Source: Patescibacteria group bacterium
GTDB taxonomy: Bacteria > Patescibacteriota > Patescibacteriia > Magasanikbacterales > GWA2-37-8
Direction: 5' to 3'
Assembly: GCA_041649475.1 (NCBI GenBank)
Contig: JBAZNA010000001.1
Span: forward strand, 814,594-878,593
DNA: 64,000 nucleotides
The translations under genes and the position numbers were made by a program. Positions 7,071-59,360 of this stretch are shown piece after piece. Numbering within the stretch: position 1 is the stretch's first letter; every line of letters begins with the position of its first letter. A model generated the notes under the pieces. That model made no database searches and was not told where the DNA came from. It worked only from the letters and a program-made list of their open reading frames with translations.

Positions 7071-7499
7071 CTATTCTTCGGGGTTATAATATCCGCCGGT
7101 GTTTACGATAAGCGATAAATCCCTGATGCGGTTATATGACATTCTGGGCAATTCTTTGACTGCTTCAATCACTTCAACTTTAGACGCGTCCCGAAGTTCA
7201 ACCAGTTCGGCCTGGCTAAAAATTTTCTGCCAAATGCGGCGGCTGGGACGCCTGACGGTTTGAATGATGTTTAAAAGAAAATAATGAAAGGCCTGTCCGT
7301 TTATTTTTACAAAAGCGATAACCAGCGCCGAACCGCCGATAATGGCCGCCAAAAATATAAACAGGGTCAGGTCAGTCAGCTTAAAACAAATAAATAAAAT
7401 CAATCCGGCCGAGAGCAAAATCAAAAATTGTCTGGTCGTCACCGGCCCGAATATTTTGTCCTCAACGTCTATAAATTGCGGCACCACGAATTGTTCCAT
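7071..7499 (-). CDS. small 2-TM membrane protein, VirB3/PrgI-like
   Basis: 142 aa with two adjacent hydrophobic helices (FLILLSAGLILFICF..., FIFLAAIIGGSALVIAFV). Position directly upstream of VirB4 matches Gram-positive-type T4SS gene order. Confidence 0.45.
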   Translation of the reverse strand: MEQFVVPQFIDVEDKIFGPVTTRQFLILLSAGLILFICFKLTDLTLFIFLAAIIGGSALVIAFVKINGQAFHYFLLNIIQTVRRPSRRIWQKIFSQAELVELRDASKVEVIEAVKELPRMSYNRIRDLSLIVNTGGYYNPEE

Positions 7500-9430: not shown

Positions 9431-12400
9431 TTACTTTGGCTTGCTATTATTTTTTTCCAAATCCTTTATCCATTCTTTAACCATTTCTTTTTGTTCCTTT
9501 TTGATGGTTTTTTCTACTCTTTCCAAGGCGCTCTTTATCAAGTTAGCCACAGCGCCCCTGTCTTTGCTTGATTGATCCACACTCGTTTGCAATTGCTTAA
9601 GTTTTTTCACATCAGAATACTGCAGGATGTCACCCAAATCTGTTTTGACATATTCATCAACCTGATCCAACCGTGTAGAAGTGAGTGGCGCTAACAAATC
9701 AGCCACTATCTTTATAGATTCATCGGATTCAACAATAGCTTTTCTGTCCTCATTTTTATCTACAGCTCCTTCCAAGCCAGCACTAATACTGGTAATTTTT
9801 GCGGATGACCTTGCGGCTGTTCTTCTTCTTTGAATATGTTCTTTTCCTCCAGCACTACCGGCATCTGTGAGCCCCGTGGTAATACTTCCATCTGCCTGTA
9901 ATGTATCCTGGAGCAAACCGGCGACAGAAAACACACCCTGCCCTGCGGCCTTATCAAGGGACAAACGCAGCTGTTCCAACAAGGCCTGCGATCGTTCTCC
10001 GTGTATAGCGCCAAACTGCTTCACAGCTGCTTCCAACCCGTCTGGGCTTGCCGCTACCTTTTCACCAATGAGAGATGAAAATATGGCCGCTTGTACCTTC
10101 CTTACAGAACCAGCATCACTCGGATCTACGGAAATATTCTTAAGTAATTCCGGATCTACTAATTTTGAAATATTATCCATGTTTCCCAAACCAATCGCAC
10201 CGTGCTGTTCCCAATTGCCAATCTGCATTTCTGCCAAGCTCTTTTGAATCTGCGAATGTTTAAGCTTAGCCGCCACGACTGCCCTCTGATCTCCGCGTGA
10301 CTCGGCTGCCGCCAACTCTTTAAGCGCTTCGTCTTGTTTGTTGTATAATCCTTCCGTCCTAATAATTGACCTAGGGAAGTCAGTACCCACTGATTGCATA
10401 TCAATTCTTTGTTTTGCTTGTTTGCTCAAAACATTTTCCAAATTATTTGCTTCAGAAAAACGATTATTGCTTCTCAAGACCGCATCCCTGGCGCGGGCCA
10501 CATTACGTTCCTTTATTTCATTCATATCCGTATTCAACTGTTCAATCTGTGCTCTTCTGTCCGTAATATCCGCTTGCACAACTTTCCCTTGATCACTTGT
10601 TAACACTTTTTTGATCTCCTCTAATTCCTTCAGTTCTCTTTCTGCGTTCAACTTATCTTCCATTTGCTTAGTCTCCGCTTTGGCTGCAGCCGCACGCAAC
10701 ATCCTCTCTCCACCTTCTCCGGCCATTAATTTTTGCTTTATCCGCGCCCTATCTTCCTCTTGTGTTGCCTTTAACATCTGCTCTATATTTTCAGCTTCAA
10801 TAGCAGATTTATCAGCATTATTTAATCGCTGATAATCAGAAGTTTGCCGAGCATCAAATTTCCCGGATGCCTCCAGTTCTTCCAAAACCTGCTTTTCTGA
10901 TTTTCCCGCACCTTTACCCGCGGCAACCGCGGCCGCTATAGCTCTATTATCTTCATCTTGTTCTTCATATTTTGTCTGTAATTTTCGCCTCTTAATATCC
11001 TGACCGGTTCTCTTCAGTTTTTCCAAGTCCGCTTCTTCTTGTAGCTTTCTTTGGCCGGTCGGGGTCTTGCTGGTGCTTATTCTATGCTCTTGTTGCTCTA
11101 TTGCATATTTTGCAGCTGTTTCTTCATCCTTTGCCAATTCATTCTTAAACCGCTGGGGTGCAAACATCAAACCAAGTCTGGCGCCATATCTTTTCCATCT
11201 ACTTTTTTCTGTAAACTCACCTTGTTCATTTTTTCCAAAGGCAGTATCTATCCTTCTCCCCGCCGCTACAATTCTCGGCTCAACATAACCCTTGTTCCAC
11301 GCTTGTGATACTCTGCTCTTTATACGAAGCCCTCTTGCTTGCCACGCCTCTCCACCCACAAGAGGAGCTTTCATCAAAGCAAACTTTCCGGCCTTTTTTC
11401 CGGCCTCCATACCCTTTCTACCCACATACCTCGCCGCGGTCAGACCACTGGCGATCTTAGCCGTCTTTTCAACCGCACTGCTAAGCATTGACCCGCCATA
11501 CACTCCCAATTCCTGGGCCATTTTGGCTCCGGCCATCAGCATACCAATGGCAATGGCGAAGTTGGCTAAAGCGACCCAGGTCATGCCTCCGCCCACTCCT
11601 GATTTTTGGCCAACGCCCGCGTCATCAACAGCCGCCCAGGTATCACCGGCCGGCAGAGGATTATTGGCAGAACTGGTAATATCAGATTGAATATCACCCG
11701 ACCCCAAAGTAACAAAAGCCAGCCAAATAAAAAAGGCAATGAGCGGACCAGAGACGACGTTGTTACCGAATTCTTTCCACCACCGATCGGCATAACCTTT
11801 TGTTTTTGGTAAAACATTTAAGACAAAAGCTAAAGGAGATAAAACAATCAACACCCAAAGCATAACCATCCTGGCTAACAGCATAATTGCAAAAACACCC
11901 ATGGTCACCATCATCATTGCCGAAAAAACTAATCCGCCCAAAGATGCCAAAAATACATTACCGGGCGTAATTTCATTCGGCTTGGCCTGACGAGCCAGAT
12001 TAAGAATATTATTAACATTAAACATGTTAATTAAATTCCCACCGGCAGTTGCGGCCACACCGTTGATAAAAGTGATCATTATCACCTGCGCGAAGTCAAT
12101 TATAATTCCGGCAATTTGCCGGCTGAAGTTCACCAGTACGGCCGCGAATATTAATTTGCTTAATAATTTTTTCCAGGAATAATCTTCAATCCCCAAAATT
12201 GTGGCAAAAGCAATAATAAGCAAAACTATGACAAAAAACATGTTGGTTATGTCGCGCACCATGATCCAGCCGATATTTACGGCCGGAGACCTGATATATC
12301 CGTTATAACCCCCAAGAGTGATGACAAACTTAAGTAAAAATATTGAAATTTGAATAAACCAACCGGCGATTGTTAACAGTATGGTACCAATCAGATTGGC

Positions 12401-12604
12401 AGCCGTTGTCCATATATCTGCAGCAGCGGTGGCAAGTCCGGTTGCGCCAAACCACATGATTAAAATCAAACTCGCACAGATAATAAAACCAACCAAACCG
12501 ATTCGCTTTCGCTTTGGTGTTAAAAACTGCCAAAATGTTTTTATTTTAACCGCAATAACGGCAAGCATGCTTAAATTATACCACATTTGGCTACTTCCGC
12601 GCAA
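9431..12604 (-). CDS. VirB6/TrbL-like polytopic membrane protein with long charged coiled-coil C-terminal extension
   Basis: N-terminal ~330 aa contain 6-7 predicted TM helices, as in VirB6/TrbL. The remaining ~700 aa are K/E/R/Q/A-rich heptad-like sequence. Confidence 0.6.
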   Translation of the reverse strand: MRGSSQMWYNLSMLAVIAVKIKTFWQFLTPKRKRIGLVGFIICASLILIMWFGATGLATAAADIWTTAANLIGTILLTIAGWFIQISIFLLKFVITLGGYNGYIRSPAVNIGWIMVRDITNMFFVIVLLIIAFATILGIEDYSWKKLLSKLIFAAVLVNFSRQIAGIIIDFAQVIMITFINGVAATAGGNLINMFNVNNILNLARQAKPNEITPGNVFLASLGGLVFSAMMMVTMGVFAIMLLARMVMLWVLIVLSPLAFVLNVLPKTKGYADRWWKEFGNNVVSGPLIAFFIWLAFVTLGSGDIQSDITSSANNPLPAGDTWAAVDDAGVGQKSGVGGGMTWVALANFAIAIGMLMAGAKMAQELGVYGGSMLSSAVEKTAKIASGLTAARYVGRKGMEAGKKAGKFALMKAPLVGGEAWQARGLRIKSRVSQAWNKGYVEPRIVAAGRRIDTAFGKNEQGEFTEKSRWKRYGARLGLMFAPQRFKNELAKDEETAAKYAIEQQEHRISTSKTPTGQRKLQEEADLEKLKRTGQDIKRRKLQTKYEEQDEDNRAIAAAVAAGKGAGKSEKQVLEELEASGKFDARQTSDYQRLNNADKSAIEAENIEQMLKATQEEDRARIKQKLMAGEGGERMLRAAAAKAETKQMEDKLNAERELKELEEIKKVLTSDQGKVVQADITDRRAQIEQLNTDMNEIKERNVARARDAVLRSNNRFSEANNLENVLSKQAKQRIDMQSVGTDFPRSIIRTEGLYNKQDEALKELAAAESRGDQRAVVAAKLKHSQIQKSLAEMQIGNWEQHGAIGLGNMDNISKLVDPELLKNISVDPSDAGSVRKVQAAIFSSLIGEKVAASPDGLEAAVKQFGAIHGERSQALLEQLRLSLDKAAGQGVFSVAGLLQDTLQADGSITTGLTDAGSAGGKEHIQRRRTAARSSAKITSISAGLEGAVDKNEDRKAIVESDESIKIVADLLAPLTSTRLDQVDEYVKTDLGDILQYSDVKKLKQLQTSVDQSSKDRGAVANLIKSALERVEKTIKKEQKEMVKEWIKDLEKNNSKPK

Positions 12605-13280
12605 TAATATATAGATAGTGTCCCCAGAAAGGAAAAATCCTGTTTAAAATGCCATCAAAAACACCAGCAATCGGCATATCCGCGTAAGGCGGTTTGGCAA
12701 AAAACTTGACTGAAGAGAAGCCATTTCGCCTTAACCAGTGTTTAAATTTAAATGGCGAATATTTTTTGTGCGTGCCATAAGGCCAGCGTTTTTTTATGCG
12801 CAGATACCATTCCTGCATAACACCGAATGAAAGCAGATTCGGCTGAACAATAATTAACAAACCGTCAGGTTTGAGCACCCGGCGCGCCTCGGATATTGCT
12901 TTTTCAATTTCATCAAAATATGTGAGCACGCCCCAGCTTAACACCACATCAAATGTCTGGTCGCTAAAAGGCAAAGCCCGCGCGTCCGCAACCTGGTAAG
13001 TATTCATATTAGTTGGTTCAATTGCCTTTGCCCGTTCAATTGCCCCGCTGGAAATGTCTATGCCACAACCGGTTGTCTGAAAATTTTGTTGTAAATATCT
13101 TAGCGCCGCTCCGTCGCCACAGCCCGCATCCAACACTTTTTTGCCCAAAAAATCAATGCCAAAATTCACCAGATCAGAAATTTTTTCTTCTGTTTTAAAC
13201 ACCCGCCGCGGGTAAAGAGAATACTGATTATTTTTTAACCAGATGGCATCCCACCGGTCAGAGATAGAATTTTTTGGCAT
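12591..13280 (-). CDS. class I SAM-dependent methyltransferase
   Basis: Motif I LDAGCGDGAA and motif post-I GIDIS, Rossmann MTase fold. Overlaps the downstream VirB6-like gene by 14 nt. Confidence 0.8.
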   Translation of the reverse strand: MPKNSISDRWDAIWLKNNQYSLYPRRVFKTEEKISDLVNFGIDFLGKKVLDAGCGDGAALRYLQQNFQTTGCGIDISSGAIERAKAIEPTNMNTYQVADARALPFSDQTFDVVLSWGVLTYFDEIEKAISEARRVLKPDGLLIIVQPNLLSFGVMQEWYLRIKKRWPYGTHKKYSPFKFKHWLRRNGFSSVKFFAKPPYADMPIAGVFDGILNRIFPFWGHYLYIIARK

Positions 13281-13285
13281 ATTTC

Positions 13286-13314
13286 TACTATATTTCTAAA
13301 CGGCGGGGTTGTCA
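13286..13314 (-). promoter_or_regulatory. sigma70-type promoter for methyltransferase / T4SS-like operon (TTGACA-17-TATAGT), near-leaderless
   Basis: Minus-strand reading is TTGACAaccccgccgtttagaaaTATAGTagaaatATG. The -10 ends 6 nt before the ATG. Confidence 0.5.
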
Positions 13315-13343
13315 ATGAGTTGGCTAAAGATTATAATTCATTC

Positions 13344-13372
13344 TTGACAGAACCTCGTCTTTTGGCTATATT
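13344..13372 (+). promoter_or_regulatory. sigma70-type promoter (TTGACA-17-TATATT) for GC-rich lipoprotein gene
   Basis: Consensus -35 at 13344-13349 and -10 at 13367-13372 with a 17-nt spacer. Leader hairpin CCCAAC-ctggtg-TTGGG at 13381-13397 and SD AAGGAGAGG follow. Confidence 0.6.
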
Positions 13373-13422
13373 ATCTGGTTCCCAACCTGGTGTTGGGTAC
13401 GAAAAAGGAAAAGGAGAGGCAC

Positions 13423-15375
13423 ATGACCAAGATCGGCTTCTGTTTCGTGGCGTTTCTCGCGTTCATCCTGTGCGCCTGTGGTGGTAACTCCGGAACCGGT
13501 GATGGCGGCACGGACAACCACGACAGCGCCGTCAGCGACGGCACCCTGCCCAACGACGCCAGGGATACGGCCCCTTCGGAGTGCACGAGCAACGCGCAGT
13601 GCGACGATGGCATTGACTGCACGGACGACACCTGTTCGTCCTCGGGCTGGTGCACCAACACGCTGGTGCCGGCGCGGTGTCCGACAGGTACGTGGTGTAA
13701 TCCCACCAAAGGTTGCGAGGCCGGAAAGGCCTGCGCCAAGGACGAGGATTGCGACAGCACCGATGCCTGCGTCGTGAACAACGGCTGTGATCCTGCCTCG
13801 CGCGTCTGCATGTGGTCAGTGCTTGACGGCGATGGCGATGGACAGCCCCCGCTTGTGTGCGGCGGAACCGACTGTGATGACAGCGACTCCGACGTCTACG
13901 CCGGAGCTCCCATGCGTTGCAACGGCAAAGATAACAACTGCGATGGGATCGTGGATACCGGAACCGCCACGGACGAATGGTGCAACGAGACCTACGGACC
14001 GGGTCACGCCTGCCAGTCAGGGCACTGCGTCTGTACGACCGGGACACAGTGCGGGTACACGTGTGCGGACTTGCTCACCGACAAGAACCACTGTGGCACA
14101 TGTTTCAACCCATGTCCGCTCAATGAAGTGTGTGTACAGGGTCAGTGTGAGTGCCCGAGCAGTGGCCAGACATTCTGTGCTGTTGATGGCTGTGTTGACC
14201 TCACGAGCGACAAATACAACTGTGGCGAGTGTGAACACGGCTGCTGGGCAGACCAGACATGCGTAGCAAGTCAGTGCGCGTGTTCAGGCAACCTGACGCA
14301 ATGCGGTTCGTGTGTGGACACACAAACCGACAACGACAACTGCGGTTCGTGCGGTCACGCCTGCAGCTCGCCTGCCAGCTGTGTGTCGGGTCAGTGCCAG
14401 TGTCCGACCAGTGGCCAGAGCTATTGCGATGGCGCCGGCTGTGTGGATCTTCAGACCGACCACGACAACTGCGGCACATGCGGGCACGCGTGCCGTGCAA
14501 GCGATACATGCTGGAGCGGCAGCTGCCCGGCTTACTGGAAAAACGTCGTGAGTAACACGGCGCTGAAGCTCAACGCAGTATGGGGAGCCGCACCCAATGA
14601 TGTCTGGACTGTTGGAAACTACACCACTGGCTCCCTGGGAGGCGCCATCCACTGGAACGGTAGCTCGTGGGCGCCTATGGGTGGCGCGACATCGAAACTC
14701 TACGGAATCTGGGGAACCACGCTTAATTTCTGGGTCGTTGGAGAAACCAGCGGGTACCTCGAGGTCTGGAATGACGTCTCCGGCACTTGGGAGGGTATAC
14801 CCAACGGGTGCACGACAGCTTCCCTCTATGGTATCTGGGGAACTGCGATTGATGATACCTGGTTCGTTGGAGCCGCCGGAACGACTGTCTATTTCAACGG
14901 CAGTACGTTCTCATGCGTCCCCAGCGGTTCAACGAATGTCCTCCATGGAGTAGGAGGCACCGCCAACAATGACGTCTGGACAGTAGGAGACGGCGGTACC
15001 ATCCTCCATTGGAATGGAAGCACGTGGTCCAGCGTGACCTCCAATACGACGAACGCCCTCTATGGAGTGTGGGGCAACACCACCAGTGATGTCTGGGTGG
15101 TGGGCGACTACGGTACCACTCTTCACTGGAATGGAAGTGTGTGGTCAGCCGTCGTCAGCTACACAGGATCAAAACTCAACGGCGTGTGGGGCAGTAGTGC
15201 CAACGATGTCTGGGCTGTGGGAGATGTCGGGGTCATCCTCCACTGGAACGGGAGTAATTGGTCCACTGTTGCCACAGGGACAACGGCACATTTCTCTGCC
15301 GTGTGGGGCAACAGCGCTACTGACATCTGGGTTGTGGGAGAAGCGGGAACCACTCTCCACTACTACACGTACTGA
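13423..15375 (+). CDS. secreted Cys-rich lipoprotein with putative metal-binding Cys/Asp motif, CGxCGHxC repeats and eight C-terminal ~40-aa propeller-like repeats; very GC-rich
   Basis: Start ATG at 13423 after SD AAGGAGAGG. Signal peptide plus Cys lipobox region (FLAFILCACGG). DGDGDGQPPLVCGGTDCDDSDSDVYAGAPMRCNGKDNNCDG matches the MopE-type putative metal-binding motif. The C-terminal repeats follow WGxxxxDVWxVGxxGTxLHWNGSxWS, eight copies. GC3 is far above the genome background. Confidence 0.75.
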   Translation: MTKIGFCFVAFLAFILCACGGNSGTGDGGTDNHDSAVSDGTLPNDARDTAPSECTSNAQCDDGIDCTDDTCSSSGWCTNTLVPARCPTGTWCNPTKGCEAGKACAKDEDCDSTDACVVNNGCDPASRVCMWSVLDGDGDGQPPLVCGGTDCDDSDSDVYAGAPMRCNGKDNNCDGIVDTGTATDEWCNETYGPGHACQSGHCVCTTGTQCGYTCADLLTDKNHCGTCFNPCPLNEVCVQGQCECPSSGQTFCAVDGCVDLTSDKYNCGECEHGCWADQTCVASQCACSGNLTQCGSCVDTQTDNDNCGSCGHACSSPASCVSGQCQCPTSGQSYCDGAGCVDLQTDHDNCGTCGHACRASDTCWSGSCPAYWKNVVSNTALKLNAVWGAAPNDVWTVGNYTTGSLGGAIHWNGSSWAPMGGATSKLYGIWGTTLNFWVVGETSGYLEVWNDVSGTWEGIPNGCTTASLYGIWGTAIDDTWFVGAAGTTVYFNGSTFSCVPSGSTNVLHGVGGTANNDVWTVGDGGTILHWNGSTWSSVTSNTTNALYGVWGNTTSDVWVVGDYGTTLHWNGSVWSAVVSYTGSKLNGVWGSSANDVWAVGDVGVILHWNGSNWSTVATGTTAHFSAVWGNSATDIWVVGEAGTTLHYYTY

Positions 15376-15427
15376 CACTAGCACTGCTTCGCTCCTTCCT
15401 ACCTTTTCGCTCCTTTTCACCCCTTCG

Positions 15428-15476
15428 GCCCGGCCCTATCTGACTTCAAGGTCAGTGGGGTACGGGCTTTTTTATT
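15428..15476 (+). terminator. rho-independent terminator
   Basis: Long near-perfect hairpin gcccggccctatctgac-ttcaag-gtcagtggggtacgggc followed by TTTTTT. Confidence 0.7.
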
Positions 15477-15508
15477 TGCTAAGCCGAGCTAAAAGTGTTA
15501 ATCTACCC

Positions 15509-15537
15509 TTGACAAGAGCTCATTTTTGTGCTATACT
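15509..15537 (+). promoter_or_regulatory. sigma70-type promoter (TTGACA-17-TATACT) for second GC-rich lipoprotein gene, with ~165-nt structured leader
   Basis: Consensus -35 at 15509-15514 and -10 at 15532-15537. The leader contains hairpin GCTAAGTT...AACTTAGC (15576-15605) and the CCCAACC...GGTTGGG hairpin (15672-15691) before SD GGAAAAGGAGA. Confidence 0.55.
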
Positions 15538-15710
15538 AATCTGTTAGTTTTTAAATAGGTTGTTCTTTACAAAGTGCTAAGTTGAGCCGAAAGGCAGAAC
15601 TTAGCCAAATGAGATGGTAAGCCCAAGTTGGGGTGATAGTTGGTTCTAAAATCTTTAGACACAGCTACAACCCCAACCTTGGGTGGTTGGGAACAGGAAA
15701 AGGAGAAACC

Positions 15711-16166
15711 ATGCGCTACAACATCAAGAAGATCCTCGCGATCATGGGCGGCTTCGCCCTTGTTCTCATCGCTGTTGCGGCCCTCACCGGCTGTGGTGGC
15801 GACGATCCCCAGTGCGGAACCGACGGTCAGCCCCCGTGCGACGTTCAGGCCGACGGCGGCACCGACGGCACGCCGACCCAGCAGGACGCTGGCGACGGCG
15901 GTGTCATCAAGACCGACGGCGGCGACGCGGGCGGAGATCCGTGCGCGGCGTTCAATCCTTACCTGAACGGATGGACCTGCAAAACCGCTCCGAATGACCC
16001 ACTGTCGTTCTCCTGCAATTTCCTGCCTACCGCCGATGGCAGTGCATGCCAGATTGGCTGCTATGGCCACTTCTCGTGCATTGCTCCTCCGGAGATGTTG
16101 ACGTCGCAGGAGTTTACCTGCGATATGATCGGCGCTCCCGGAAACATCCGCATCTGTGTCCACTAG
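15711..16166 (+). CDS. small secreted Cys/Gly/Asp-rich lipoprotein; very GC-rich
   Basis: ATG at 15711 after SD AAGGAGAAACC. Signal peptide with classic lipobox LTGC. Eleven Cys in a 151-aa mature part. GC3 very high. Confidence 0.7.
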   Translation: MRYNIKKILAIMGGFALVLIAVAALTGCGGDDPQCGTDGQPPCDVQADGGTDGTPTQQDAGDGGVIKTDGGDAGGDPCAAFNPYLNGWTCKTAPNDPLSFSCNFLPTADGSACQIGCYGHFSCIAPPEMLTSQEFTCDMIGAPGNIRICVH

Positions 16167-16246
16167 TTCCACCCCACCATCTCGCTCGCGACGATTCACA
16201 AATCGTCGCGCGCTTCCCTAAGTAGAAAATAGCTTTTCTGTTGAGG

Positions 16247-16285
16247 AAAAACAAAAATCCCGATTCAAATCGGGATTTTTGTTTT
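16247..16285. terminator. bidirectional rho-independent terminator
   Basis: AATCCCGAT-tcaa-ATCGGGATT perfect 9-bp stem flanked by A-run upstream and T-run downstream. Serves the converging lipoprotein gene (+) and giant gene (-). Confidence 0.75.
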
Positions 16286-16294
16286 AAATATTGT

Positions 16295-19200
16295 TTACTG
16301 TGGCGCGACAATGATACTACCGAAAAATGAAGTTGAAGCAGTAGTCAAATAATTGTCGCACTCATTGACATAAGGGGATGTCCACCCCTTATCATAACAC
16401 CCACCCAGCCCATTGTGATCACAACTCCCATTACACCACCCCCAATTATCCTTCACCTGCACGGACGGTTTGAAGACGCAACAGCCACCCGGGAAACGCG
16501 CGTCCGGACAAGTGTCTTGCCAGCCGGTGCCGTCTTTTAGACATTGGTAAACGTGGTCAAAACGGAAGTATGAGTTGTCACAAGATTTATCCAATATCTG
16601 ACCGAAATTGACAGACAAACTCTCCGACAGACACTGATCCAAATATTTACAATCAGCGGATTTAACACAAGTTTTGCCGGTGTCCACGTTAACTGTGGTG
16701 CGACTGTCTGTGGAAAGGGCAGAAATATATTCCGTAGCTTGGACTTTACAAGTGCCGTTTGTGCATGTACCGGCAACTACGCCGCGATGGTTGCGATAAT
16801 AGCCATTAAGGTTGGTCAAATCACCGTCACCCCAACTGACAATAACATTTCGCAAAGGCATTTGATTGGCGTCGGCAAAGGCGTAAAATTTAATGTTGGC
16901 CGGGAAGACGTATGACGGAGAAACTACATTACCGGTTGATTGATCGTTGACGGTGATACCCGGATTACCTTCACCGCATCTGCCGGCTAAACATGCTTGC
17001 GTGTTAAGAGAGCGGACTTCGGGCGGTCTCGGTGTTAATCCCGAACATGCTTGCACAGAACTTCCGCTTAAGGTAACGTTCGGACAAATGTTTTTATCTC
17101 CTTTTTCCGTATAATTATTGTTGACGTAATAGGTTGAATTGGGAACATAGGCCTTTGAGTTAAAACTATATTCCAAATCCGCATAAACGCTCGCAAAAAT
17201 CTTGGCCGCGGCCTTTTGGCCTTGATCTAAAACAAAGTTGCTGGCCGGACTCTTTTTAACTCCGCCTGAATCGGTGGTCATGGTACAACCACTGCCATTA
17301 TCATACTGACAACTGAAAGGAGCGCCGGAAACTTGTTTGGGGGCTGTTAAATTGTATTTACACGTACAATCATAAGTCGTGCCGTCGGATTTTACCGGAC
17401 AGGGATTGCACTCACTCTCCGCCTTTGGCATGGCGCCGACAGGACTAAGCACAACAGGACTAACCGGTTGGGTATTCTGACCAATACTGCCAAATGGACT
17501 ACGATTGGTTAAATAATCATAACCCACCCAATCAGCAATCTCCGGTCCGCCAAAATCTCTTATTGAATACTTTGATTTTTGCCATAAACGATCTGTCCAA
17601 GCCACAGCGCGTCCGCCACTGGGATTAATACCACTGTCAACGGACACATCCAAAATCTTTTCGCACCACTGCCTTACTCTAAATTTCACGTCATAGTTAA
17701 TATGTCCTGTATTAGCAGAATCATCACAATAAGCTAAATAATAACCCAAAAACTTACCGGTATTTTCATCAAACTTTAACCGAACAGCATGCCAATTTCC
17801 AAAATTTTTACTAGATAATGTACAGATATCATCCATACTGATGCTTCTATTCCAAATGCCTTCCACGCCCAAGCTTCTGTTGTTAGAGGTTTTTAAAGTG
17901 TCGGCTTGCAGAATATTACCGGATAATGTGGCACAAGTTAAAGTATCCCCGCTATAACCATAACAAACCGAACCATCATCCTTAAGATAAGTGCTATTTA
18001 CCGGGTCGGCCTCATTCTTGGAAGCGCTACTATACATTAATATAAATTCATTTGCTTTACCTAAATATTTGCCAACTACAGCATGCCCAAAAGGACTAAC
18101 ATTACCGCCTCTGGTATTAAGAGCAAACACTGCTTGAGGGGTTCCAACAGGCGCGGTATTATCATTAGGCCAAACTTCAAAAACAGTACCTACTCTAGGA
18201 TCCTCCGTATCATCACCGGTCACCGTGAATTGAATTTTTTCTATGTCAGCCAAACGTAAATTCTTCTCTCCATTATTTGAGTCAGCAGGCACAAAAGCTC
18301 TTATATATGCATTGTCGGATTGTTCCATCCACCATCCGGTCTCGAGAATATTCGTATCACCCAGACCATTTGCGGTGTGCATTTGTAAATTTTCAGTACT
18401 CCCCTCTATGGCGGGATTTGGCTTGGCCGTCCACTCAAAATAATAAGGAGTAGCACCTACATATCCCATCACTTTATTTCCACTCAAACAATAATACCTG
18501 CCTCCATTTGAAGGATTAACATATCCGGCTTCCCTGTCCTGGCCATTGACATCCGGAGCGCCGATTAGAGTGTCAACCGGATACCAAGTCAAACAAGTGT
18601 TGGTCTTGCCGTCCGCGTTTAATTGTCTGGAAATATCCGGCTCCAAACAATAACCGTGCCAGCCCACAAAACTGGTTTGCTTGGTGGCTTTGTTGCAAGT
18701 GCCGCCGTCCGGACAATCAGCATCGGTTTCACAAACCTTGCCGTCACGGGTGCCATTGGAACAAATTCCGCCCACCACTCCCTTAATCATCGTATTGTTC
18801 ACGCCGGCAATGCCAACCAAATTATTCGGATTGCTTAAATTCCAATACTTGGAAATTGAATCCCCATAACTGACTTTTGTATAATCACATTCGCAGGCAC
18901 CCGCCGCACTCGCATCAGTGGTCACACCTGTCCCACTTTCATTGCACAAATTCGCGCCGGCATAATTTTGCGCTGATTTCAAACTTTGCGTGTTCGGATA
19001 CGGCGCGCTTTCTTCCGGATAATTGCGGCAAGTTTGTTTGGGCGCGTTAGCGTCAAAGTCGGCGGCCGTGCCGTTTGGGTTTAAAACGCAGACCGAATTA
19101 TTGCTGGCGGTTTTTTCACACAAACCAATGCCGCCGCGGCCGCACTTATCCGTACCTGCTTTGCAAAGATAAGATTCAGTTTTGGTTGAATCCTGGCAAT

Positions 19201-34215: not shown

Positions 34216-34857
34216 TTAGTCGTGCGGATTATAAATCCATTCGCAATTTTTACTGCGGGCGATATCAGCCGGAGTCACCTCTTCAAGCGCCAGGGGCAAA
34301 TCCCGCTTGTCCATTCCGTCTTTAAAAACTACGGCCTGTTTCTGTTCTTTGGCCACAGCGTTATAAAAAGCTTTTTGTATGAATGAACTGCAGACAAAAG
34401 TATCCTTATTTATTAGAAAATCCTTGACATGCTTATTGCCGCCTTTTAATTTAAGCTCCACAAATTTAAGCAAAAATCCCAGCAACCTCAAATAGTCATA
34501 GGGAATATCCACATTATTCATCAAAAACGACAGGACTCTGGCCCTGACTTCTTCGGACAGCCCGGGTACGCGTTTAACCCCCAGTTCCAAAAAATCAAAA
34601 TGTTTTGTGTATTTCTGGATGCGGTGAATTTCAATACCGTGATCTTCCGCGCTAATAATTAAAATATTCTTAAACAAACGACTCTTATTGGGCACAAAAA
34701 AAACAATGACGGCATGATTCCAATAACTACCCAAAATTTTCCGGATGGATCCGGAAAGCGCCGAACGGGTGTCTCTGGTTAAGATGATATCCGCTACCTG
34801 CAATTTTGATTCAATTTTTTTCCAAGCTGCGGCGCGCCTTTTACCCCGGGGCATCAT
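34216..34857 (-). CDS. YiiX/YaeF-family permuted papain-like (peptidase C92) protein, paralog 1
   Basis: ADIILTRDTRSALSGSIRKILGSYWNHAVIVF resembles the GDLIFxR...SxWSHVGIV motif. Downstream Cys motif TFVCSSFIQKAFY resembles KFYCSELV. No signal peptide. Confidence 0.55.
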   Translation of the reverse strand: MMPRGKRRAAAWKKIESKLQVADIILTRDTRSALSGSIRKILGSYWNHAVIVFFVPNKSRLFKNILIISAEDHGIEIHRIQKYTKHFDFLELGVKRVPGLSEEVRARVLSFLMNNVDIPYDYLRLLGFLLKFVELKLKGGNKHVKDFLINKDTFVCSSFIQKAFYNAVAKEQKQAVVFKDGMDKRDLPLALEEVTPADIARSKNCEWIYNPHD

Positions 34858-35489
34858 ATTAATTTTTTATTATATATCCAAACCGCCTTGCCGCTTTGGG
34901 CAATATCGGCCGGGGTGGTAATATCCTGCAATTCCATCGGCGACAAGAAATCCTCTCTAAAAATCATGTCCTCTCTTTTGTCCCATCCAGCCGCCTCGTA
35001 GAAGGCCTTCTGCACAAAACCGCTACAGCTGAATCTCTGTCTGCCCAGCAAATCTTCACTAAATTTTTTTGAAATCGCCGCGAGCAAAAACCGGGATAGT
35101 GTCAGTTTATAATAAGGGGCATCAACATTCATCAGCATAAAAGACAAAATTCTCTTTCTGGTTTCAGGGTCCAAATCCGGCACGCGCTTTATGCCGATTT
35201 CGTATTTTTCCGGATCTTTAAGATATTTATCCAATTTATGAACCTCTATGCCGCGCGGCGCAACCGCCTCAATAATCTGATTATAATATTGGCCCTTGGC
35301 AACATCTTTGGCAAACAACACTAGAGCCACATGATCCCAATAACTTTTCGTTACTTTCCTGATCAGATACCTTAAAAAATTTTTCTTTACGTGCACCAAA
35401 ACAATATCCGCTTCTTTTAAAGGGGGAATTATACCCTTCACGCGTTCCAGGGGAAAGGCGATGTAATTTCTCTCCTCCTTCGTGGACAT
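34854..35489 (-). CDS. YiiX/YaeF-family permuted papain-like (peptidase C92) protein, paralog 2
   Basis: Same architecture (ADIVLVHVKK...SYWDHVALVLF ... FSCSGFVQKAFY). 4-nt overlap with paralog 1. Confidence 0.55.
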   Translation of the reverse strand: MSTKEERNYIAFPLERVKGIIPPLKEADIVLVHVKKNFLRYLIRKVTKSYWDHVALVLFAKDVAKGQYYNQIIEAVAPRGIEVHKLDKYLKDPEKYEIGIKRVPDLDPETRKRILSFMLMNVDAPYYKLTLSRFLLAAISKKFSEDLLGRQRFSCSGFVQKAFYEAAGWDKREDMIFREDFLSPMELQDITTPADIAQSGKAVWIYNKKLI

Positions 35490-35504
35490 AAAATTAGTTT
35501 TTAT

Positions 35505-37178
35505 TTATTCCGTCACCCTGAACACCTCTTCAACCGAGGTGATTTTATCTAGCGCTTTAAGGAGCCCATCCTGCACCATTGTCACCATCCCATTTTTCAC
35601 GGCCAATTCCTGGATGGTGTATTCCGAAACCTGGGCGCTTAAAATAATCTGCTCCAGCTCTTTGCTCATGGTAAAAATTTCATAAATTCCAACTCTGCCT
35701 TTATAACCCAAGCCGCTGCACTCTTCACAGCCCTTGCCGTGGTAAAAATGCAATTTTTTTAAATTAACCTTTTTTTGCTCCGCCTCGGGCAGGGTTTCTA
35801 AACTTTTCACGACCTTGGCCATTACTTCAGGCGCCAGCTCAATTTCTTCCTGACAATGCGTGCAAATTTTACGCACCAATCTTTGGCCAATTACTGAATT
35901 TAAAGCCGGAGCCAATAAAAACGGCTTCACGCCCATTGACAGGAAACGGGGAACGGCTCCGGAAGCGCTGTTGGTATGAATTGTGGAAAGCATTAAGTGA
36001 CCAGTTAGGGCCGCCTGAATGGCAATCTCGGCGGTTTCCAAATCACGGATTTCGCCGACCATGCAGATATCCGGGTCCTGACGCAAAATGCTACGCAAAC
36101 CCTTGGCGAAAGTATAGTCGCGGCTGGCATCAACCTGGCTTTGATTGATTCCCTCCATTTTTATTTCCACCGGATCTTCCAAAGTGATGATTTTTACGCC
36201 CGGTTTATTTAAACCTTTCAAAATCGCATACATGGTGGTGGTCTTTCCGGAACCGGTAGGCCCGGTGGTGATAATCATGCCGTTCGGCCGCTCCACTTCT
36301 TTCTTTAGTCGTTCATAGGCCTCACCGCGGAGTCCCAATTCGTCAAAAGAAACGGTTTTACTGCCGCTGTATAAAATACGCATCACCACGCTCTCACCAT
36401 AAACGGTCGGCATGGTGGAAACGCGAACATCCAGATTGCCGGATGATAATTTCAAAGTTACACGCCCGTCTTGCGGGCGGTCATTGATGTTTATTTTCAA
36501 AGCCGCCAGAAGTTTTATGCGCGACACGAATTTTTTCCATTCTTCTTTGGGCAAGGTGGCCACGTCATGTAAAATTCCGTCAATGCGATAGCGCACCATG
36601 ATGCCGTTTTCTTCGGCCTCAACGTGAATATCGGAAGAATCAACCTTCAAGGCCGAAGCAATTATCAAAGTCAAAATGTCGGTAATGGAAACATTTTTAA
36701 ACTGCTCGGCCAAACTCCGAAAATCAACCACCCCGGCTTTAAATTTATTGAGTTCCTCATCAGTGATGTTGATATCTTTGGTCACCGGCTTAACAATCGG
36801 CAGGTTCGCGTATAATTTCAAAATCGCTTCCAAACTATTTTCCGAAATTAGATAAATTTTAACATTGCCATGGTGCCGTTCGCCGATCTGATATGCCATT
36901 TCTTTGATTTCATCACTATACTCAACGCATCCCAGCCGTATCTCATCCGCCAAATTAAAAAAACAGACCGCTTTGCTGGCTCTGGCCTCGGCTTCGGAAA
37001 TTAAGCGCAAGGCCTCCGATGACACCGGAAATCCAAACAAATCTATATACGGTAAATTTAAAGCCGCCGCCTTTTGGGCAACCAGTCCCTCTTTGGCTTT
37101 CACGTCCAGCTCCTCCATTTTTTTGGAAAACTTCGCGCCTGATGAACTCAAATTTCCGATTGAAGGAAAATCACTCAT
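35505..37178 (-). CDS. pilB: type II secretion / type IV pilus assembly ATPase (GspE/PilB family)
   Basis: Walker A GPTGSGKTTT, Asp box, His box, and C-terminal tetracysteine (CTHCQEE...CEECSGLGYKGR). Confidence 0.85.
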   Translation of the reverse strand: MSDFPSIGNLSSSGAKFSKKMEELDVKAKEGLVAQKAAALNLPYIDLFGFPVSSEALRLISEAEARASKAVCFFNLADEIRLGCVEYSDEIKEMAYQIGERHHGNVKIYLISENSLEAILKLYANLPIVKPVTKDINITDEELNKFKAGVVDFRSLAEQFKNVSITDILTLIIASALKVDSSDIHVEAEENGIMVRYRIDGILHDVATLPKEEWKKFVSRIKLLAALKININDRPQDGRVTLKLSSGNLDVRVSTMPTVYGESVVMRILYSGSKTVSFDELGLRGEAYERLKKEVERPNGMIITTGPTGSGKTTTMYAILKGLNKPGVKIITLEDPVEIKMEGINQSQVDASRDYTFAKGLRSILRQDPDICMVGEIRDLETAEIAIQAALTGHLMLSTIHTNSASGAVPRFLSMGVKPFLLAPALNSVIGQRLVRKICTHCQEEIELAPEVMAKVVKSLETLPEAEQKKVNLKKLHFYHGKGCEECSGLGYKGRVGIYEIFTMSKELEQIILSAQVSEYTIQELAVKNGMVTMVQDGLLKALDKITSVEEVFRVTE

Positions 37179-54702: not shown

Positions 54703-56199
54703 ATGCCTTATAGATCTAAAATTCCCCAAAATCCCACTTTAGATGACTTAATGGAAACAATTAAGCAGTTTTATCGTAAAGAAGATTTGGAAATTGTCCG
54801 GCGCGCTTATGATTTTGCCGAAAGAGCGCATGCCGGCCAATTTAGAAAATCAGGCGAGCCCTACATCGTCCACCCGCTTTCAGCCGCCCTCCTTCTAACC
54901 GCAATGAGAATTGACGCGAATATTATCGCGGCCGCGCTTTTGCATGATGTTCCCGAAGATACCTCTGTCACGCTTGAAGAAATAGAAAAAAATTTCGGAC
55001 ACGACATTACCTCAATGGTAAAAGGCATTACCAAATTGGGAAAATTAAAATATCGCGGCGTGGAACGGTATATTGAAAACTTGCGCAAAATGTTCGTGGC
55101 CATGGCCGAAGATATCAGGGTTATGATTATCAAATTCGCCGACCGGGTAACCAATTTGGCCACCTTGGATGCCCTGCCGCCAAAAAAACGCTATCGCATC
55201 GCCTTGGAAAGTTTAGAAATTTACGCGCCCATCGCCAATCGCTTGGGAATCGGCGAATTTAAAAGCTTACTGGAAGACCTGTCGTTTCCGTATGTTTATC
55301 CCAAAGAATTTGAAAAAACAAAAGCCCTTAGAGACGGTTTGATTTCCGAACAGGAAACGTACTTGGAAAATGTAATGGATATAATGAGAAAAGAGTTAAA
55401 AAATTCCGGCATCAAACTGTCCGACGTGCACGGCCGAGAAAAAACTTTATATAGTTTATACCAAAAAATAATGGCCAAAGGCGGCTGGGAACAGATAGAT
55501 AAAGTACATGATGTGGTGGCAATAAGAATAATCGTTGCCGACGTCGGCGATTGTTACGCAACGCTTGGCATCATTCACAAACTCTGGCGGCCGCTAAAAG
55601 GCAGGATTAAAGATTACATCTCACAACCAAAGCCGAACGGCTATAAATCTCTGCACACAACCGTGTTTTGCGTTGATGGCAGAATCGTTGAGTTTCAAAT
55701 CCGCGATACCACCATGCATGAAGAAGCGGAGTATGGCATCGCGGCTCATTGGCATTACGACGAGAACCGCTCCCATTCCCAGGCCAAAGATATTTTCTGG
55801 GCCCAGGAATTGGCCGGCATCCAAAAAAATATTCTGGAAAAAATGTCGGATATTGATGAATTAAAACTGGATTTCTTTAAAAACCGGATTTTTGTCTTCA
55901 CTCCCCAAGGCGATGTTATTGACCTGCCCGAAGACGCCACGCCGATTGATTTTGCCTATCATATCCATACTGACATCGGCAATAAATGCAACGGCGCCAA
56001 GGTGAATGACCAGTTGGTAAGTTTGGACACGTCACTTAAAAGCGGCGACGTTGTGGAAATTGTTATGGATAAAAATCGCAAAGGGCCAAGCCAGGACTGG
56101 CTCAAAACCGTAAAGACGCACCTGGCCAAATCCAGAATAAAAGCCAGTTTAAAGGGTGAAAAAGCGGGCTGGCTGAAAATCATCCTGCCGGGAAAATAA
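54703..56199 (+). CDS. rel: RelA/SpoT-homolog (p)ppGpp synthetase/hydrolase, short form without ACT domain
   Basis: HD hydrolase motif (HDVPEDT), synthetase motif (RIKDYISQPKPNGYKSLHTTV), TGS domain at the C-terminus. Confidence 0.85.
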   Translation: MPYRSKIPQNPTLDDLMETIKQFYRKEDLEIVRRAYDFAERAHAGQFRKSGEPYIVHPLSAALLLTAMRIDANIIAAALLHDVPEDTSVTLEEIEKNFGHDITSMVKGITKLGKLKYRGVERYIENLRKMFVAMAEDIRVMIIKFADRVTNLATLDALPPKKRYRIALESLEIYAPIANRLGIGEFKSLLEDLSFPYVYPKEFEKTKALRDGLISEQETYLENVMDIMRKELKNSGIKLSDVHGREKTLYSLYQKIMAKGGWEQIDKVHDVVAIRIIVADVGDCYATLGIIHKLWRPLKGRIKDYISQPKPNGYKSLHTTVFCVDGRIVEFQIRDTTMHEEAEYGIAAHWHYDENRSHSQAKDIFWAQELAGIQKNILEKMSDIDELKLDFFKNRIFVFTPQGDVIDLPEDATPIDFAYHIHTDIGNKCNGAKVNDQLVSLDTSLKSGDVVEIVMDKNRKGPSQDWLKTVKTHLAKSRIKASLKGEKAGWLKIILPGK

Positions 56200-59200: not shown

Positions 59201-59360
59201 TTTGACCTTGATTTTCTACCCAAGGAATGATGACGTTGGTTATCTTTGTTTGTTGGGCAGCAGAAAAATCAGCTGCTTTAGCCGGCATGGTGCCAAAACA
59301 AAAAATTGCCGTGAGTATAATTAAACCCACCGTTGCTAATTTTATATTTTTTCCGCTCAT
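56232..59360 (-). CDS. secreted SBBP (beta-propeller repeat) surface protein, 1042 aa
   Basis: Signal peptide (LIILTAIFCFGTMPAKA). About 10 SBBP-type repeats (YSTDFPTTTGAYDT...GDSDVFVTKF). Poly-Thr linker TTSTTTTTTVTT and a C-terminal domain. Confidence 0.75.
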   Translation of the reverse strand: MSGKNIKLATVGLIILTAIFCFGTMPAKAADFSAAQQTKITNVIIPWVENQGQIKDDSVKFSANIFMGTVFVTDNGTITYSLKQNKADQKGAVIKEIPQFKNTPLITGQEQTETKINYFIGADKSKWQTNVAAYNVVLFGEIYPNIELKLKAHGNNVEKLYTIYPNGDPSDIKMTIKGADKLSLTKDGQLQADVHGVKPIYFTKPIAYQDINGTRVNVSIQYKLNKNSYSFTVGAYNKNYNLVIDPELDTLLVSTYFGGSTDGESPLAMTADADGNLFILGNTYSTDFPTTTGAYDTELDTGPDIVIIKMDSDLSSLLAMTILGADGWDEAWNLGIDGSGNIFIAGDTDTTFPTTTGAYQTSTNGLGEGFVSKLDNDLTSLLASTYFGGSDNEYVTDIKLDSSGNVYIAGYTASNDIAITAGTYGVDYGGGAEDGFVVKFNNALTHATSTYIGATGDEWINALALDGSGNVYLAGNTTDSSFPTTTDAFDTTPNVGPGNNDGFVVKLNNDFSSLLSSTLLGGSDDDRIWAMTLSPTYDSLYVAGRTYSTDFATTSGAYDTTQNGDSDVFVTKFNIGLTQALASTYLGGSGEDRLSDPAEIYVDAYTVYLSGTTASTGFPTTTGAYQVTRAGGFDSFLTKMSLGLTALQGSTYFGGTLNEGNGGLYVNSERVVYLLGDTYSTNLPVTAGAYSTSNAGSYDMFIAKFGNPVPAITSLSPSRYRFDDTSPFTLTVNGTGFVVSSTIKINGVSFTTTYVTTTKLTSTVTAGDIGTHGTYDVTVYSSTPGGGTSASSIFTLYIQNGGGGYISTPAPIVVSAPSTPVVSPTTSTTTTTTVTTLAGCPALSAGDMVKVTGKAAIYSLNSNLQVLYFPSGDEFKSWNVDNSYGGYKSISQSCFDALSVPSTYPGAVNYRPGSYVVKKSSADQLYVVLPNNTLSKITDTDATALYGQNYTVKIISDPFWPHYINRGTDTTSSAHQGMLISKDTKTWYVDAGNVLREVTANGMTTNRFKTSFIHVVSESYLTGFTTGDLIDVEVPIIASRVQ

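Follow-up and report, generated by a model that had tools for sequence, protein, structure and literature searches.

A candidate expression slot for GC-rich, fast-evolving lipoproteins beside a type IV secretion system-like operon in Patescibacteria

Two GC-rich lipoprotein genes and their expression signals

The window, the whole 64-kb stretch of DNA analysed here from a Patescibacteria group bacterium (assembly GCA_041649475.1, contig JBAZNA010000001.1), contained two adjacent GC-rich genes, open reading frame 1 (ORF1) and ORF2, in the gap between an operon resembling a type IV secretion system (T4SS) and the gene of a giant Cys-rich protein. This gap, hereafter the slot, was compared with related loci and contigs, which carry L-numbers. 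The features of the slot and its two neighbours are given in Table 1.

The GC content of the window was 0.443, with stretches of 0.56-0.67 at 13,350-15,450 and 15,700-16,200. ORF1 had a GC content of 0.595 and a third-position GC content (GC3) of 0.690 (z = +4.8 against the native genes), while ORF2 reached 0.625 and 0.763 (z = +6.4); the 39 native ORFs of the window showed a GC3 of 0.468 ± 0.046 with a range of 0.356-0.562. The GC excess began at the start codons and stopped at the ORF1 stop codon and approximately 50 nt past the ORF2 stop codon, and the intergenic parts were host-like (0.40 at 13281-13422, 0.45 at 15376-15710 and 0.30 at 16216-16294). Both genes departed from the native genes chiefly at two-fold degenerate sites, where the share of C among C/T was 0.67-0.72 (native genes 0.32, groEL 0.39) and that of G among A/G was 0.68-0.93 (native genes 0.37, groEL 0.21). 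FYMINK residues made up 0.15-0.22 of the ORF1 and ORF2 proteins compared to 0.30 ± 0.035 of the native proteins, and GARP residues 0.25-0.34 compared to 0.22. The preliminary description of this segment had placed its GC and GC3 far above the background, and the comparison with native genes, codon usage included, bore this out. Translational selection was rejected as the cause of the codon bias: groEL favours A at the two-fold purine sites where ORF1 and ORF2 favour G, so that the bias is one of general GC enrichment and not of the translational optimisation of this genome.

The region held 11 promoter-like sites compared to the 3.5 ± 2.1 expected. The preliminary description had also reported a TTGACA-17-TATATT and a TTGACA-17-TATACT promoter, strong Shine-Dalgarno sites that native genes lack and a terminator for each gene. 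Both promoters were present, together with one more before ORF1; ORF1 had its own stem-loop with U-run, and the ORF2 terminator is bidirectional and shared with the giant gene. The Shine-Dalgarno sequence AAGGAG was located 6-7 nt before the ATG in both genes, and 31 of 40 native genes had no Shine-Dalgarno match of at least 4 nt. Alignment of the last 45 nt of the ORF1 leader (CCCAAC/GTTGGG hairpin, A-rich tract and AAGGAGA) with the end of the ORF2 leader scored 58.6, compared to 32.9 ± 4.8 for shuffled sequences, and the direct repeat D13 (13396-13417 and 15685-15706) was 82% identical. On this alignment, the end of the ORF1 leader is judged paralogous to the distal part of the ORF2 leader. 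Several native genes carried a TATAAT-like box 6-12 nt before their ATG (for example 7071-7499, 54703-56199 and 60234-61007), and the scarcity of Shine-Dalgarno sites together with these boxes suggests leaderless or near-leaderless mRNAs in this genome.

Both products were predicted lipoproteins, as had been proposed. A lipobox of the PROSITE PS51257 type follows the pattern [LIVMFWSTAG]2-[LIVMFYSTAGCQ]-[AGS]-C after a charged and a hydrophobic region, and the N-termini read from the translations, MTK-IGFCFVAFLAF-ILCA/C in ORF1 and MRYNIKK-ILAIMGGFALVLIAVA-ALTG/C in ORF2, fit a lipoprotein signal. The MopE-type motif claimed earlier for the larger protein was recovered in ORF1 at residues 150-178 with PF11617 (Cu-binding_MopE, putative metal-binding; 32.7 bits, cut-off 27). 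ORF1 also matched PF04885 (Stig1; 39.3 bits, cut-off 24.1) and, at residues 247-368, the NCBIfam model NF041328 'MXAN_6577-like' (111.1 bits, E = 4e-32, cut-off 100). The structural model of ORF1, with a mean predicted local distance difference test (pLDDT) score of 84, consisted of Cys-rich modules followed by a seven-bladed propeller with pLDDT >95, whose closest solved fold was Ycf48 (template modelling score 0.75, 16-17% identity); a sequence search of the PDB with ORF1 gave no match. Cys-rich repeats are also found in the myxobacterial surface receptor TraA, model TIGR04201 (PMC3325183), a loose analogy for the stalk of ORF1 only, and ORF1 had no match with TIGR04201 in the NCBIfam scan.

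ORF2 is on record as hypothetical protein MFA5062312.1. Its AlphaFold model, built with an 11-sequence alignment, showed a beta-rich domain at residues 75-151 with pLDDT >90 and a disordered linker, and a Foldseek search of this model against the PDB found nothing below E = 0.7. In the alignment of the ORF2 family four Cys were invariant and two nearly invariant; from this conservation the six Cys of the domain probably form three disulfides.

Table 1. Features of the slot and of its two neighbouring genes in the window (17 denotes the promoter spacer in nt).
Feature	Position	Strand	Description or basis
VirB6/TrbL-like polytopic membrane protein, 1057 aa (amino acids)	9431..12604	-	first gene of the T4SS-like operon; Pfam PF04610; orthologs at equal position in approximately 50 loci
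S-adenosylmethionine (SAM)-dependent methyltransferase, GC 0.43	12591..13280	-	accessory slot resident, divergent from ORF1; Pfam Methyltransf_11/23/25
Two tandem sigma70-type ORF1 promoters	13309..13372	+	TTGTCA-17-TATAAT (13309-13337) and TTGACA-17-TATATT (13344-13372); slot-promoter type, compared with TTGACAAAAnnnnnAAAAtnTGCTATAAT
ORF1 short leader	13381..13422	+	hairpin CCCAAC/GTTGGG, A-rich tract, AAGGAG at 13411-13416; RNA fold
ORF1 predicted lipoprotein, 650 aa, GC3 0.69	13423..15375	+	signal/lipobox; disordered linker ~19-51; Cys-rich N-domain; MopE-type motif 150-178
ORF1 C-terminal parts	13423..15375	+	MXAN_6577/Stig1-like Cys repeats ~190-370; seven-bladed Ycf48-like beta-propeller ~372-650
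ORF1 intrinsic terminator	15427..15474	+	GC-rich stem-loop and U6 run; RNA fold
ORF2 promoter	15509..15537	+	TTGACA-17-(TG)TATACT, extended TG; 89% conserved with L002
ORF2 5' leader, ~170 nt	15544..15710	+	single-stranded UUCUUUACAAAGU, H1, long second hairpin, hairpin CCCCAACC/GGUUGGG, AAGGAG at 15700-15705
Leader hairpin H1	15563-15609	+	GCUAAG...CUUAGCC; covariation
ORF2 predicted lipoprotein, 151 aa, GC3 0.76	15711..16166	+	signal peptide/lipobox ..ALTGC; acidic Gly/Asp/Thr-rich disordered linker ~29-75; beta-rich C-terminal domain of ~75 aa; six conserved Cys
ORF2 3' untranslated region (3'UTR)	16167..16247	+	C-rich motif CCACCCCACCATC, GC-rich hairpin 16184-16213, then CUAAGUAGAAAA...UUUUCUGUUGAGG hairpin; RNA fold
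Bidirectional intrinsic terminator	16248..16285	.	common to ORF2 and the convergent giant gene; fold
Giant Cys-rich secreted or surface protein, 2567 aa	16295..23998	-	conserved partner on the other side of the slot

The slot and its parts in related genomes

With the final 600 residues of the giant protein as query, species-representative genomes yielded 79 loci, almost all of which came from Patescibacteria (Magasanikbacteria, Falkowbacteria, Parcubacteria and unnamed metagenome-assembled genomes (MAGs)). The order of genes, followed with tblastn of the window proteins in approximately 60 loci, was ksgA, a 210-aa gene, the giant gene, the slot, the VirB6-like gene, further genes, PrgI, TraC-like and VirB4. 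The earlier placement of the two genes in a surface or host-interaction locus, between the T4SS-like operon and the 2567-aa gene, is in keeping with this synteny. VirB4 was 80-87% identical in the closer loci while the giant protein was only 35-55% identical, which indicates that the loci compared are deep relatives and not strains. The T4SS-like cluster of Patescibacteria is described as homologous to monoderm conjugation systems (VirB4, TrsD/TraC-like, PrgI/VirB3 and VirB6), and its genes were reported as essential for the epibiotic growth of a cultivated Saccharibacterium (PMC12102498). L003, L004, L006, L007 and other records bear titles such as 'uncultured Gammaproteobacteria bacterium', 'Candidatus Udaeobacter sp.', 'Candidatus Methylomirabilis sp.' or 'Syntrophales bacterium'; on typical Patescibacteria loci these probably reflect mis-binning of contigs or the use of placeholder names.

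From the giant gene to the VirB6-like gene, the gap measured 140-330 bp in distant relatives and 0.7-3 kb in approximately 30 closer relatives, where it held a patch of 55-73% GC inside loci of 37-53% GC. These approximately 30 loci had one or two slot ORFs of 120-316 aa, on the opposite strand to the giant gene in all but one, each with a signal peptide and lipobox and most with an Asp/Gly/Pro/Thr-rich linker followed by a Cys-containing C-terminal part. The slot lipoprotein genes of the relatives had a GC content of 0.51-0.71 compared to 0.37-0.53 for their loci. A blind scan of each locus for ORFs with GC3 above the median by more than 0.2 returned an ORF in the slot, in either frame, and usually nothing else. 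Over 40 slot lipoprotein genes the GC3 excess above the locus median averaged 0.32 (range 0.08-0.58), and 37 of them had a GC3 above every other ORF of at least 150 aa in their locus; the extremes were L021 (0.88 compared to 0.30), L023 (0.91 compared to 0.37) and L034 (0.91 compared to 0.35). The accessory genes of the slot were of low or ordinary GC, namely the methyltransferase (window and L120), HicAB-like genes (L025) and nucleotidyltransferase/HEPN pairs (L022 and L120). The GC anomaly belongs to the lipoprotein coding sequences and not to the region.

BLASTP joined 20 slot proteins including ORF2, of which 16, again with ORF2, stayed joined by their last 100 residues alone. The best match of ORF2 was in L003 (41% over 66 aa, E = 3e-11), followed by L013, L012, L017 and L014. 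Word-indexed protein searches returned two proteins with ORF2 alone and three with the C-terminal alignment A1, the family being too divergent for the index. An exhaustive phmmer search of ORF2 against 1.84 billion representatives gave 13 matches only. Ten of these were 117-166 aa long, one being ORF2 itself and most of the others of like build, and the three long matches touched only the low-complexity linker of ORF2. The contigs of four matches carried the small gene beside the 3' end of the giant gene, or a rearranged slot with a 60%-identical methyltransferase ortholog, and the matches examined lay in Patescibacteria contexts with one exception. By these sequence comparisons, ORF2 is assigned to a clade-wide, fast-evolving slot family with homologs in at least 20 related genomes. 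Since this family is a GC3 outlier in nearly all of its loci, the GC-richness of ORF2 cannot be read as recent acquisition.

ORF1 had a different distribution. No homolog was detected with tblastn in the related loci L003-L081, and no relatives were found in viral contigs. A total of 1120 database homologs were found, the best of them 36-50% identical over parts, and the sources named were Deltaproteobacteria/Myxococcales/Polyangiaceae, Pendulispora, Longimicrobia, Gemmatimonadaceae, Planctomycetales and Zixibacteria. For the N-terminal half, three homologs of 45-50% identity were located on contigs of 72%, 68% and 64% GC, with flanks of the same GC that encode Ser/Thr kinases and the like. 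In L002, the closest relative, a different gene of 100 aa lay upstream of the ORF2 promoter where the window has ORF1, and the homology of L002 with the window started at 15476, right after the ORF1 terminator. Taken together, distribution and composition indicate that the ORF1 coding sequence was probably acquired from a high-GC, Myxococcota-like lineage. As its closest homolog is at most 50% identical, a recent transfer is unsupported. The L002 contig (Logan SRR25490534, 1619 bp) itself looked circularly permuted, with a 3' fragment of the giant gene at 1-435 that should follow the terminator at 1581-1619, and its homology to the giant gene ended abruptly at 423. This arrangement is probably a graph-cycle artefact, and the gene before the ORF2 promoter is still informative.

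The expression signals of the slot were shared across the related loci. Nearly all slot genes were preceded, at 100-300 nt, by a promoter of the TTGACA-17-TATAAT type and had a strong Shine-Dalgarno site. The leaders had in common the sequence UUCUUUACAAAGU, hairpin H1 (GCUAAG...CUUAGCC), CAAUAAGAUGG, a long stable hairpin and, directly ahead of the Shine-Dalgarno site, one or two small hairpins. In an 11-sequence alignment H1 was paired in 82% of cells compared to 68% in shuffles, with none of 500 shuffles reaching 82%. Changes on both sides were compensatory in 10 of 13 H1 pairs, and registers shifted by 1-3 columns lowered the pairing to 20-53%. RNAalifold on a plain MAFFT alignment of the leaders gave a weak -0.67 kcal/mol, and it took a structure-aware register to bring out H1. 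When run on 1.33 Mb, the covariance model built for H1 gave 16 sense matches, all upstream of slot genes and including copies outside its training set (L002, L003 and both cassettes of L022 and L029). Besides the single copy in the window, at 15563-15609, copies were found for example in L002 (905-951), L019 (12227-12273, minus strand) and L007 (12129-12175, minus strand), with 12 more. Rfam 15 had no match for the leader in 15538-15710, and apart from tRNAs, searches of the whole window at the gathering score and of 13200-16400 with E values of up to 5 yielded nothing but terminator-like noise. The UUCUUUACAAAGU and H1 leader is a candidate for a new cis-regulatory RNA motif. A metagenome scan with the leader motif TCTTTAMAAAGTGCT-N18-36-TAGCCA was discarded, all 27 matches being chance occurrences inside unrelated coding regions that had neither promoter nor lipoprotein gene.

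A common plan was also seen after the stop codons, where CCACC(C)CACCATC was followed by a GC-rich hairpin that varied in sequence, then by a CUUAGCAGAAGAA...UUCUUCU.UUGAG hairpin and the bidirectional terminator. This plan was present in the 150 nt downstream of slot genes in L004, L011, L012, L013, L016, L017, L018, L091, L120 and others, and L087 had the same architecture. Pairwise comparison of the window with L002 gave 89% identity over 128 nt of promoter and leader, 85% over 164 nt of coding sequence (signal and linker, the C-terminal domain being unalignable) and 85% over 40 nt of the 3' end; for L016 and L020 the values were 87.5% over 264 nt and 82% over 51 nt for the two non-coding parts, and only 33 nt of the coding sequence aligned. 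The non-coding parts of the slot were thus better conserved than its coding sequence, the reverse of the usual. From this conservation, promoters, leaders, Shine-Dalgarno hairpins and 3'UTR are taken to be native cassette parts common to the clade. The CUUAGC of the 3'UTR equals the 3' arm of H1, and it could pair with the leader or bind a common factor.

Of the neighbouring genes, the methyltransferase of the window had a 60%-identical ortholog in the slot of L120 and none that tblastn detected in L003-L081. In L120, a Hainich groundwater contig, the slot cassette (602-1054) and the methyltransferase ortholog (2191-2919) were inverted relative to the window, and the slot also held a HEPN/nucleotidyltransferase pair, TrmB and a PALP enzyme. 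Low-GC modules resembling toxin-antitoxin systems, either HicB/HicA-like as judged by reading the sequences or of the nucleotidyltransferase/HEPN kind, were present beside GC-rich lipoprotein genes in L025 (3861-4327), L022 (14752-16115) and L029 (11744-11974). Several metagenome contigs ended 20-180 nt upstream of a small lipoprotein gene (L088 with the gene at 20, L089 at 120, L091 at 129, L092 at 168 and L122 at 181), and these recurrent ends suggest strain-level heterogeneity, with a variable slot there. Elsewhere in the window, a GC bump of 0.53-0.56 lay within the VirB6-like gene at 11250-11700, two tandem genes of C92 (YaeF/YiiX-type) permuted papain-like amidases at 34216-37178 adjoined a T2SSE/PilB-type ATPase gene, and 56232-59360 encoded another large surface-type protein, a secreted protein of 1042 aa with a DUF7948 domain and SBBP beta-propeller repeats.

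Origin and persistence of the GC-rich coding sequences

Overall, the locus is best read, with fair though far from full confidence, as a conserved expression slot for surface lipoproteins inside a T4SS-like/giant-protein host-interaction locus, in which ORF2 is the resident and ORF1 a lineage-specific high-GC addition. In a Patescibacterium of the Magasanikbacteria/Falkowbacteria type, the slot would supply native AT-rich parts, namely a near-consensus sigma70 promoter, a structured leader with a hairpin and strong Shine-Dalgarno site, and a 3'UTR with terminator, and the coding sequence between them would be GC-rich and very fast evolving. ORF2 would be the resident cassette inherited with the slot, its product a membrane-anchored protein with a flexible acidic linker and a six-Cys tip domain. 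ORF1 would be a second, lineage-specific cassette, in which a Myxococcota-like coding sequence for a Cys-rich stalk and a beta-propeller came to lie behind a duplicate of the slot promoter and Shine-Dalgarno hairpin. We infer a high expression of the slot lipoproteins; the two proteins would be displayed on the cell surface at a high level and, in concert with the T4SS-like machine and the giant protein, would contact or recognise the host cell. The fast turnover of slot proteins would then represent diversifying selection.

Several points weigh against this reading. Lipidation, surface display and the host-contact role are inferred from sequence, and neither Lgt nor LspA was among the window proteins scanned, a sample of 64 kb in which no search was aimed at them. 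For ORF1, it is distribution and composition, and not a phylogeny, that speak for the direction and age of the transfer. The slot lipoproteins fell into several groups unrelated by BLAST (the ORF2-linked set, a second group of eight, a pair and singletons), so that one resident family covers only about half of them, and the slot may be a general capture site. A protein 45% identical to ORF2 over its full length, P0125, was encoded on a 4.6-kb contig of 72% GC (L087; JGI 3300043540, contig Ga0453685_024387), and given this find the ORF2 family may be of high-GC origin.

The second group of eight, with motif CNDCSCDPSLCDGGGD and lengths of 155-306 aa, was found in L008 (2579-3235), L037 (10786-11514), L033, L039, L047, L052, L035 and L041, where the genes directly follow the giant gene. 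Further unrelated GC-rich lipoproteins occupied this position in L025 (316 aa), L027 and L028 (approximately 278 aa) and L034 (230 aa, GC3 0.91). Pfam and NCBIfam had no match for eight other slot lipoproteins.

Three causes of the persistent GC-richness remain: repeated replacement from high-GC sources, GC-biased repair during exchange of divergent alleles, and selection for GC-rich mRNA. A single old import that did not decay is implausible because the anomaly spans lineages whose synonymous sites must be saturated. The leaders, 3'UTR tails, methyltransferase and toxin-antitoxin genes were of ordinary or low GC, which led us to reject a mutational or conversion bias acting on the slot as a whole. 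The last two causes amount to an internal force that keeps native coding sequences GC-rich, either through repair of heteroduplexes in frequent allele recombination or through a need for stable, structured mRNA that depends on a Shine-Dalgarno site, and such a force, which is compatible with the slot reading, is a tenable possibility that falls short of probable. The anomaly is retained between lineages in which the flanking proteins share only 35-55% identity; it is confined to the variable coding part, while the conserved UTRs and accessory slot genes are not GC-rich; it affects G-ending and C-ending codons and amino-acid composition alike; and the mosaic conservation fits allele exchange. 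GC-biased repair would act on the variable coding part, so that the conserved UTRs are spared. On the other side, a GC3 shift of +0.3 to +0.6 is far above what is known of GC-biased conversion in bacteria. The tests made do not separate mRNA selection from biased repair; we lean towards GC-biased repair in allele exchange, or repeated import, over mRNA selection.

Repeated import in its full form, with all slot coding sequences including ORF2 as repeatedly replaced acquisitions from high-GC neighbours or hosts and the slot as a site of capture and expression, is unlikely. It would account for ORF1, a foreign high-GC coding sequence installed behind slot signals, for the several unrelated groups of slot genes, for coding sequences far less conserved than their UTRs and for contigs that often break just upstream of the slot gene. 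It would also account for L087, where perfect 37-bp direct repeats (2069-2105 and 2586-2622) bracket the P0125 unit from ATG to 3' hairpin, the first repeat ending at position -1 of the ATG. Nevertheless, L087 was the only contig in which the exhaustive phmmer search placed the ORF2 family in a high-GC bacterium, and its flanking genes had a GC3 of approximately 0.9 while the P0125 gene was less GC-rich than these flanks and was followed by a stretch of 0.40-0.55 GC, which suggests transfer out of Patescibacteria. In addition, the 16 slot proteins with one Cys framework fit descent within the clade.

The P0125 gene was 77% identical over 164 nt in DNA to the gene of P0127, which lies in a Patescibacteria context, and the C-rich motif and hairpin after its stop codon were 78% identical over 68 nt to the window. 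On this one short contig, the unit may be an assembly loop or a cassette that had entered a high-GC genome. A wider reading, of which we are quite doubtful, takes the GC-rich unit of coding sequence, C-rich motif and 3' hairpin as a discrete mobile cassette for a conserved expression socket beside the T4SS-like machine, exchanged among Patescibacteria and with high-GC bacteria, possibly hosts. It is put forward because the L087 unit sits between the 37-bp repeats, and ORF1 would then represent traffic the other way. In its boldest version, which argues from analogy, the consensus promoter, strong Shine-Dalgarno site and GC-rich codons could serve expression in a high-GC partner cell, as with the host-type signals of T-DNA genes.

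The preliminary description had taken the 3-kb segment as a single genomic island, recently acquired from one high-GC donor, possibly the host, together with its promoters, Shine-Dalgarno sites and terminators. ORF1 and ORF2 are indeed both strong GC3 outliers, ORF1 has relatives in high-GC bacteria and the Shine-Dalgarno sites are atypical for the genome. One history for both genes is contradicted by ORF2, of which at least 20 related genomes have homologs in the syntenic position, promoter, leader and 3'UTR included, and by L002, which has the ORF2 cassette with another gene at the place of ORF1. The expectation of high-GC relatives held for ORF1, with named homologs in Myxococcota and Gemmatimonadota and its best homologs on contigs of 64-72% GC, and failed for ORF2, which is almost without homologs outside Patescibacteria contexts; likewise, a deviant segment absent from relatives describes ORF1 and not ORF2, which occupies the same slot in those loci. 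Recent acquisition is at odds with the clade-wide GC3 excess of the ORF2 family and is not borne out for ORF1, given the distance from its closest homolog. Imported promoters and leaders are at odds with intergenic parts that are AT-rich, host-like and shared across the clade, and the host as donor is pure conjecture. No tRNA was nearby, no integrase was among the window proteins scanned, and the sole flanking repeat was the duplicated leader end. A single island is thus very improbable.

An assembly chimera of high-GC fragments joined into a Patescibacteria contig would explain the sharp GC steps at gene borders, but its chance is negligible (untenable for ORF2 and very unlikely for ORF1), as the exact ORF1 protein is on record for two contigs, one of 963,177 bp and one, from ENA, of 633,560 bp that matches the window at 100% identity across 21,953 bp, the steps fall on start and stop codons with promoters, Shine-Dalgarno sites and terminators between, and a like arrangement occurs in dozens of independent MAGs.

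Comparison with known systems

Compared by description, the slot gene is like VirB7 in being a small, fast-evolving lipoprotein gene beside T4SS genes. VirB7 is part of the core complex that diderm systems build at the outer membrane, where it binds VirB9. The slot gene is transcribed separately, in convergent orientation and with a leader of its own. In the study of the Patescibacteria machine, which falls in the monoderm MPF-FATA type without VirB7/9/10, VirB7 is described as small, fast-evolving and without a hidden Markov model, a lipoprotein is mentioned only there and GC content nowhere (PMC12102498).

A compositional genomic island resembles ORF1 in its deviant GC3, absence from relatives and distant high-GC homologs. 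It differs in that the slot signals are native, ORF2 is resident and no mobility genes, tRNA or flanking repeats were seen in the window. An integron gene cassette is a promoterless ORF with a 3' hairpin site behind a resident promoter, and the slot is alike in its GC-rich coding sequence and 3' hairpin behind resident signals, with the L087 unit bracketed by repeats. Unlike an integron, the slot has no array but two cassettes at most, each under a promoter of its own. Of the integron hallmarks, no integrase or recombinase was found among the window proteins scanned and no RYYYAAC/GTTRRRY pair was seen on reading 16167-16295.

ORF1 scored above the cut-offs of the MXAN_6577-like and Stig1-like proteins of Myxococcota, yet it lies in a Patescibacteria genome of 44% GC and is at most 50% identical to any homolog. 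With Ycf48 it shares the fold only, and no photosystem role is implied. Horizontal transfer into Patescibacteria is documented in general (PMC12455944). A limited search of the literature found no description of a GC-rich lipoprotein slot, of its leader and 3'UTR or of a persistent GC3 anomaly.

How Patescibacteria recognise and attach to their hosts is largely unknown, and the slot lipoprotein, fast-evolving and probably highly expressed, is a concrete candidate for a determinant of host specificity. The leader and 3'UTR could be used to find such cassettes in any metagenome, and gene traffic between Patescibacteria and Myxococcota-like bacteria could hint at the identity of hosts. That a gene in low-GC genomes has kept a GC3 excess of +0.3 to +0.6 through deep divergence is relevant to the debate on biased conversion, selection and transfer. 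The slot is also a warning, as a compositional outlier is here not evidence of recent transfer.

Variable surface-lipoprotein loci of bacteria that are reduced or lack a wall, such as those of the Vsp/Vlp type in Mycoplasma, encode abundant membrane-anchored lipoproteins. Together with the hypervariable 'metagenomic islands', they are like the slot in combining conserved signals and signal peptide with a fast-changing exposed part and in varying at the population level at a fixed site. To our knowledge, a clade-wide GC3 excess as in the slot genes is not a feature of either kind of system. The slot differs from them in having no phase-variation repeats, invertible promoters or silent copies seen in the window, where tblastn found no silent copies of ORF1 or ORF2, and in that its exposed domain is a predicted cysteine-stabilised fold.

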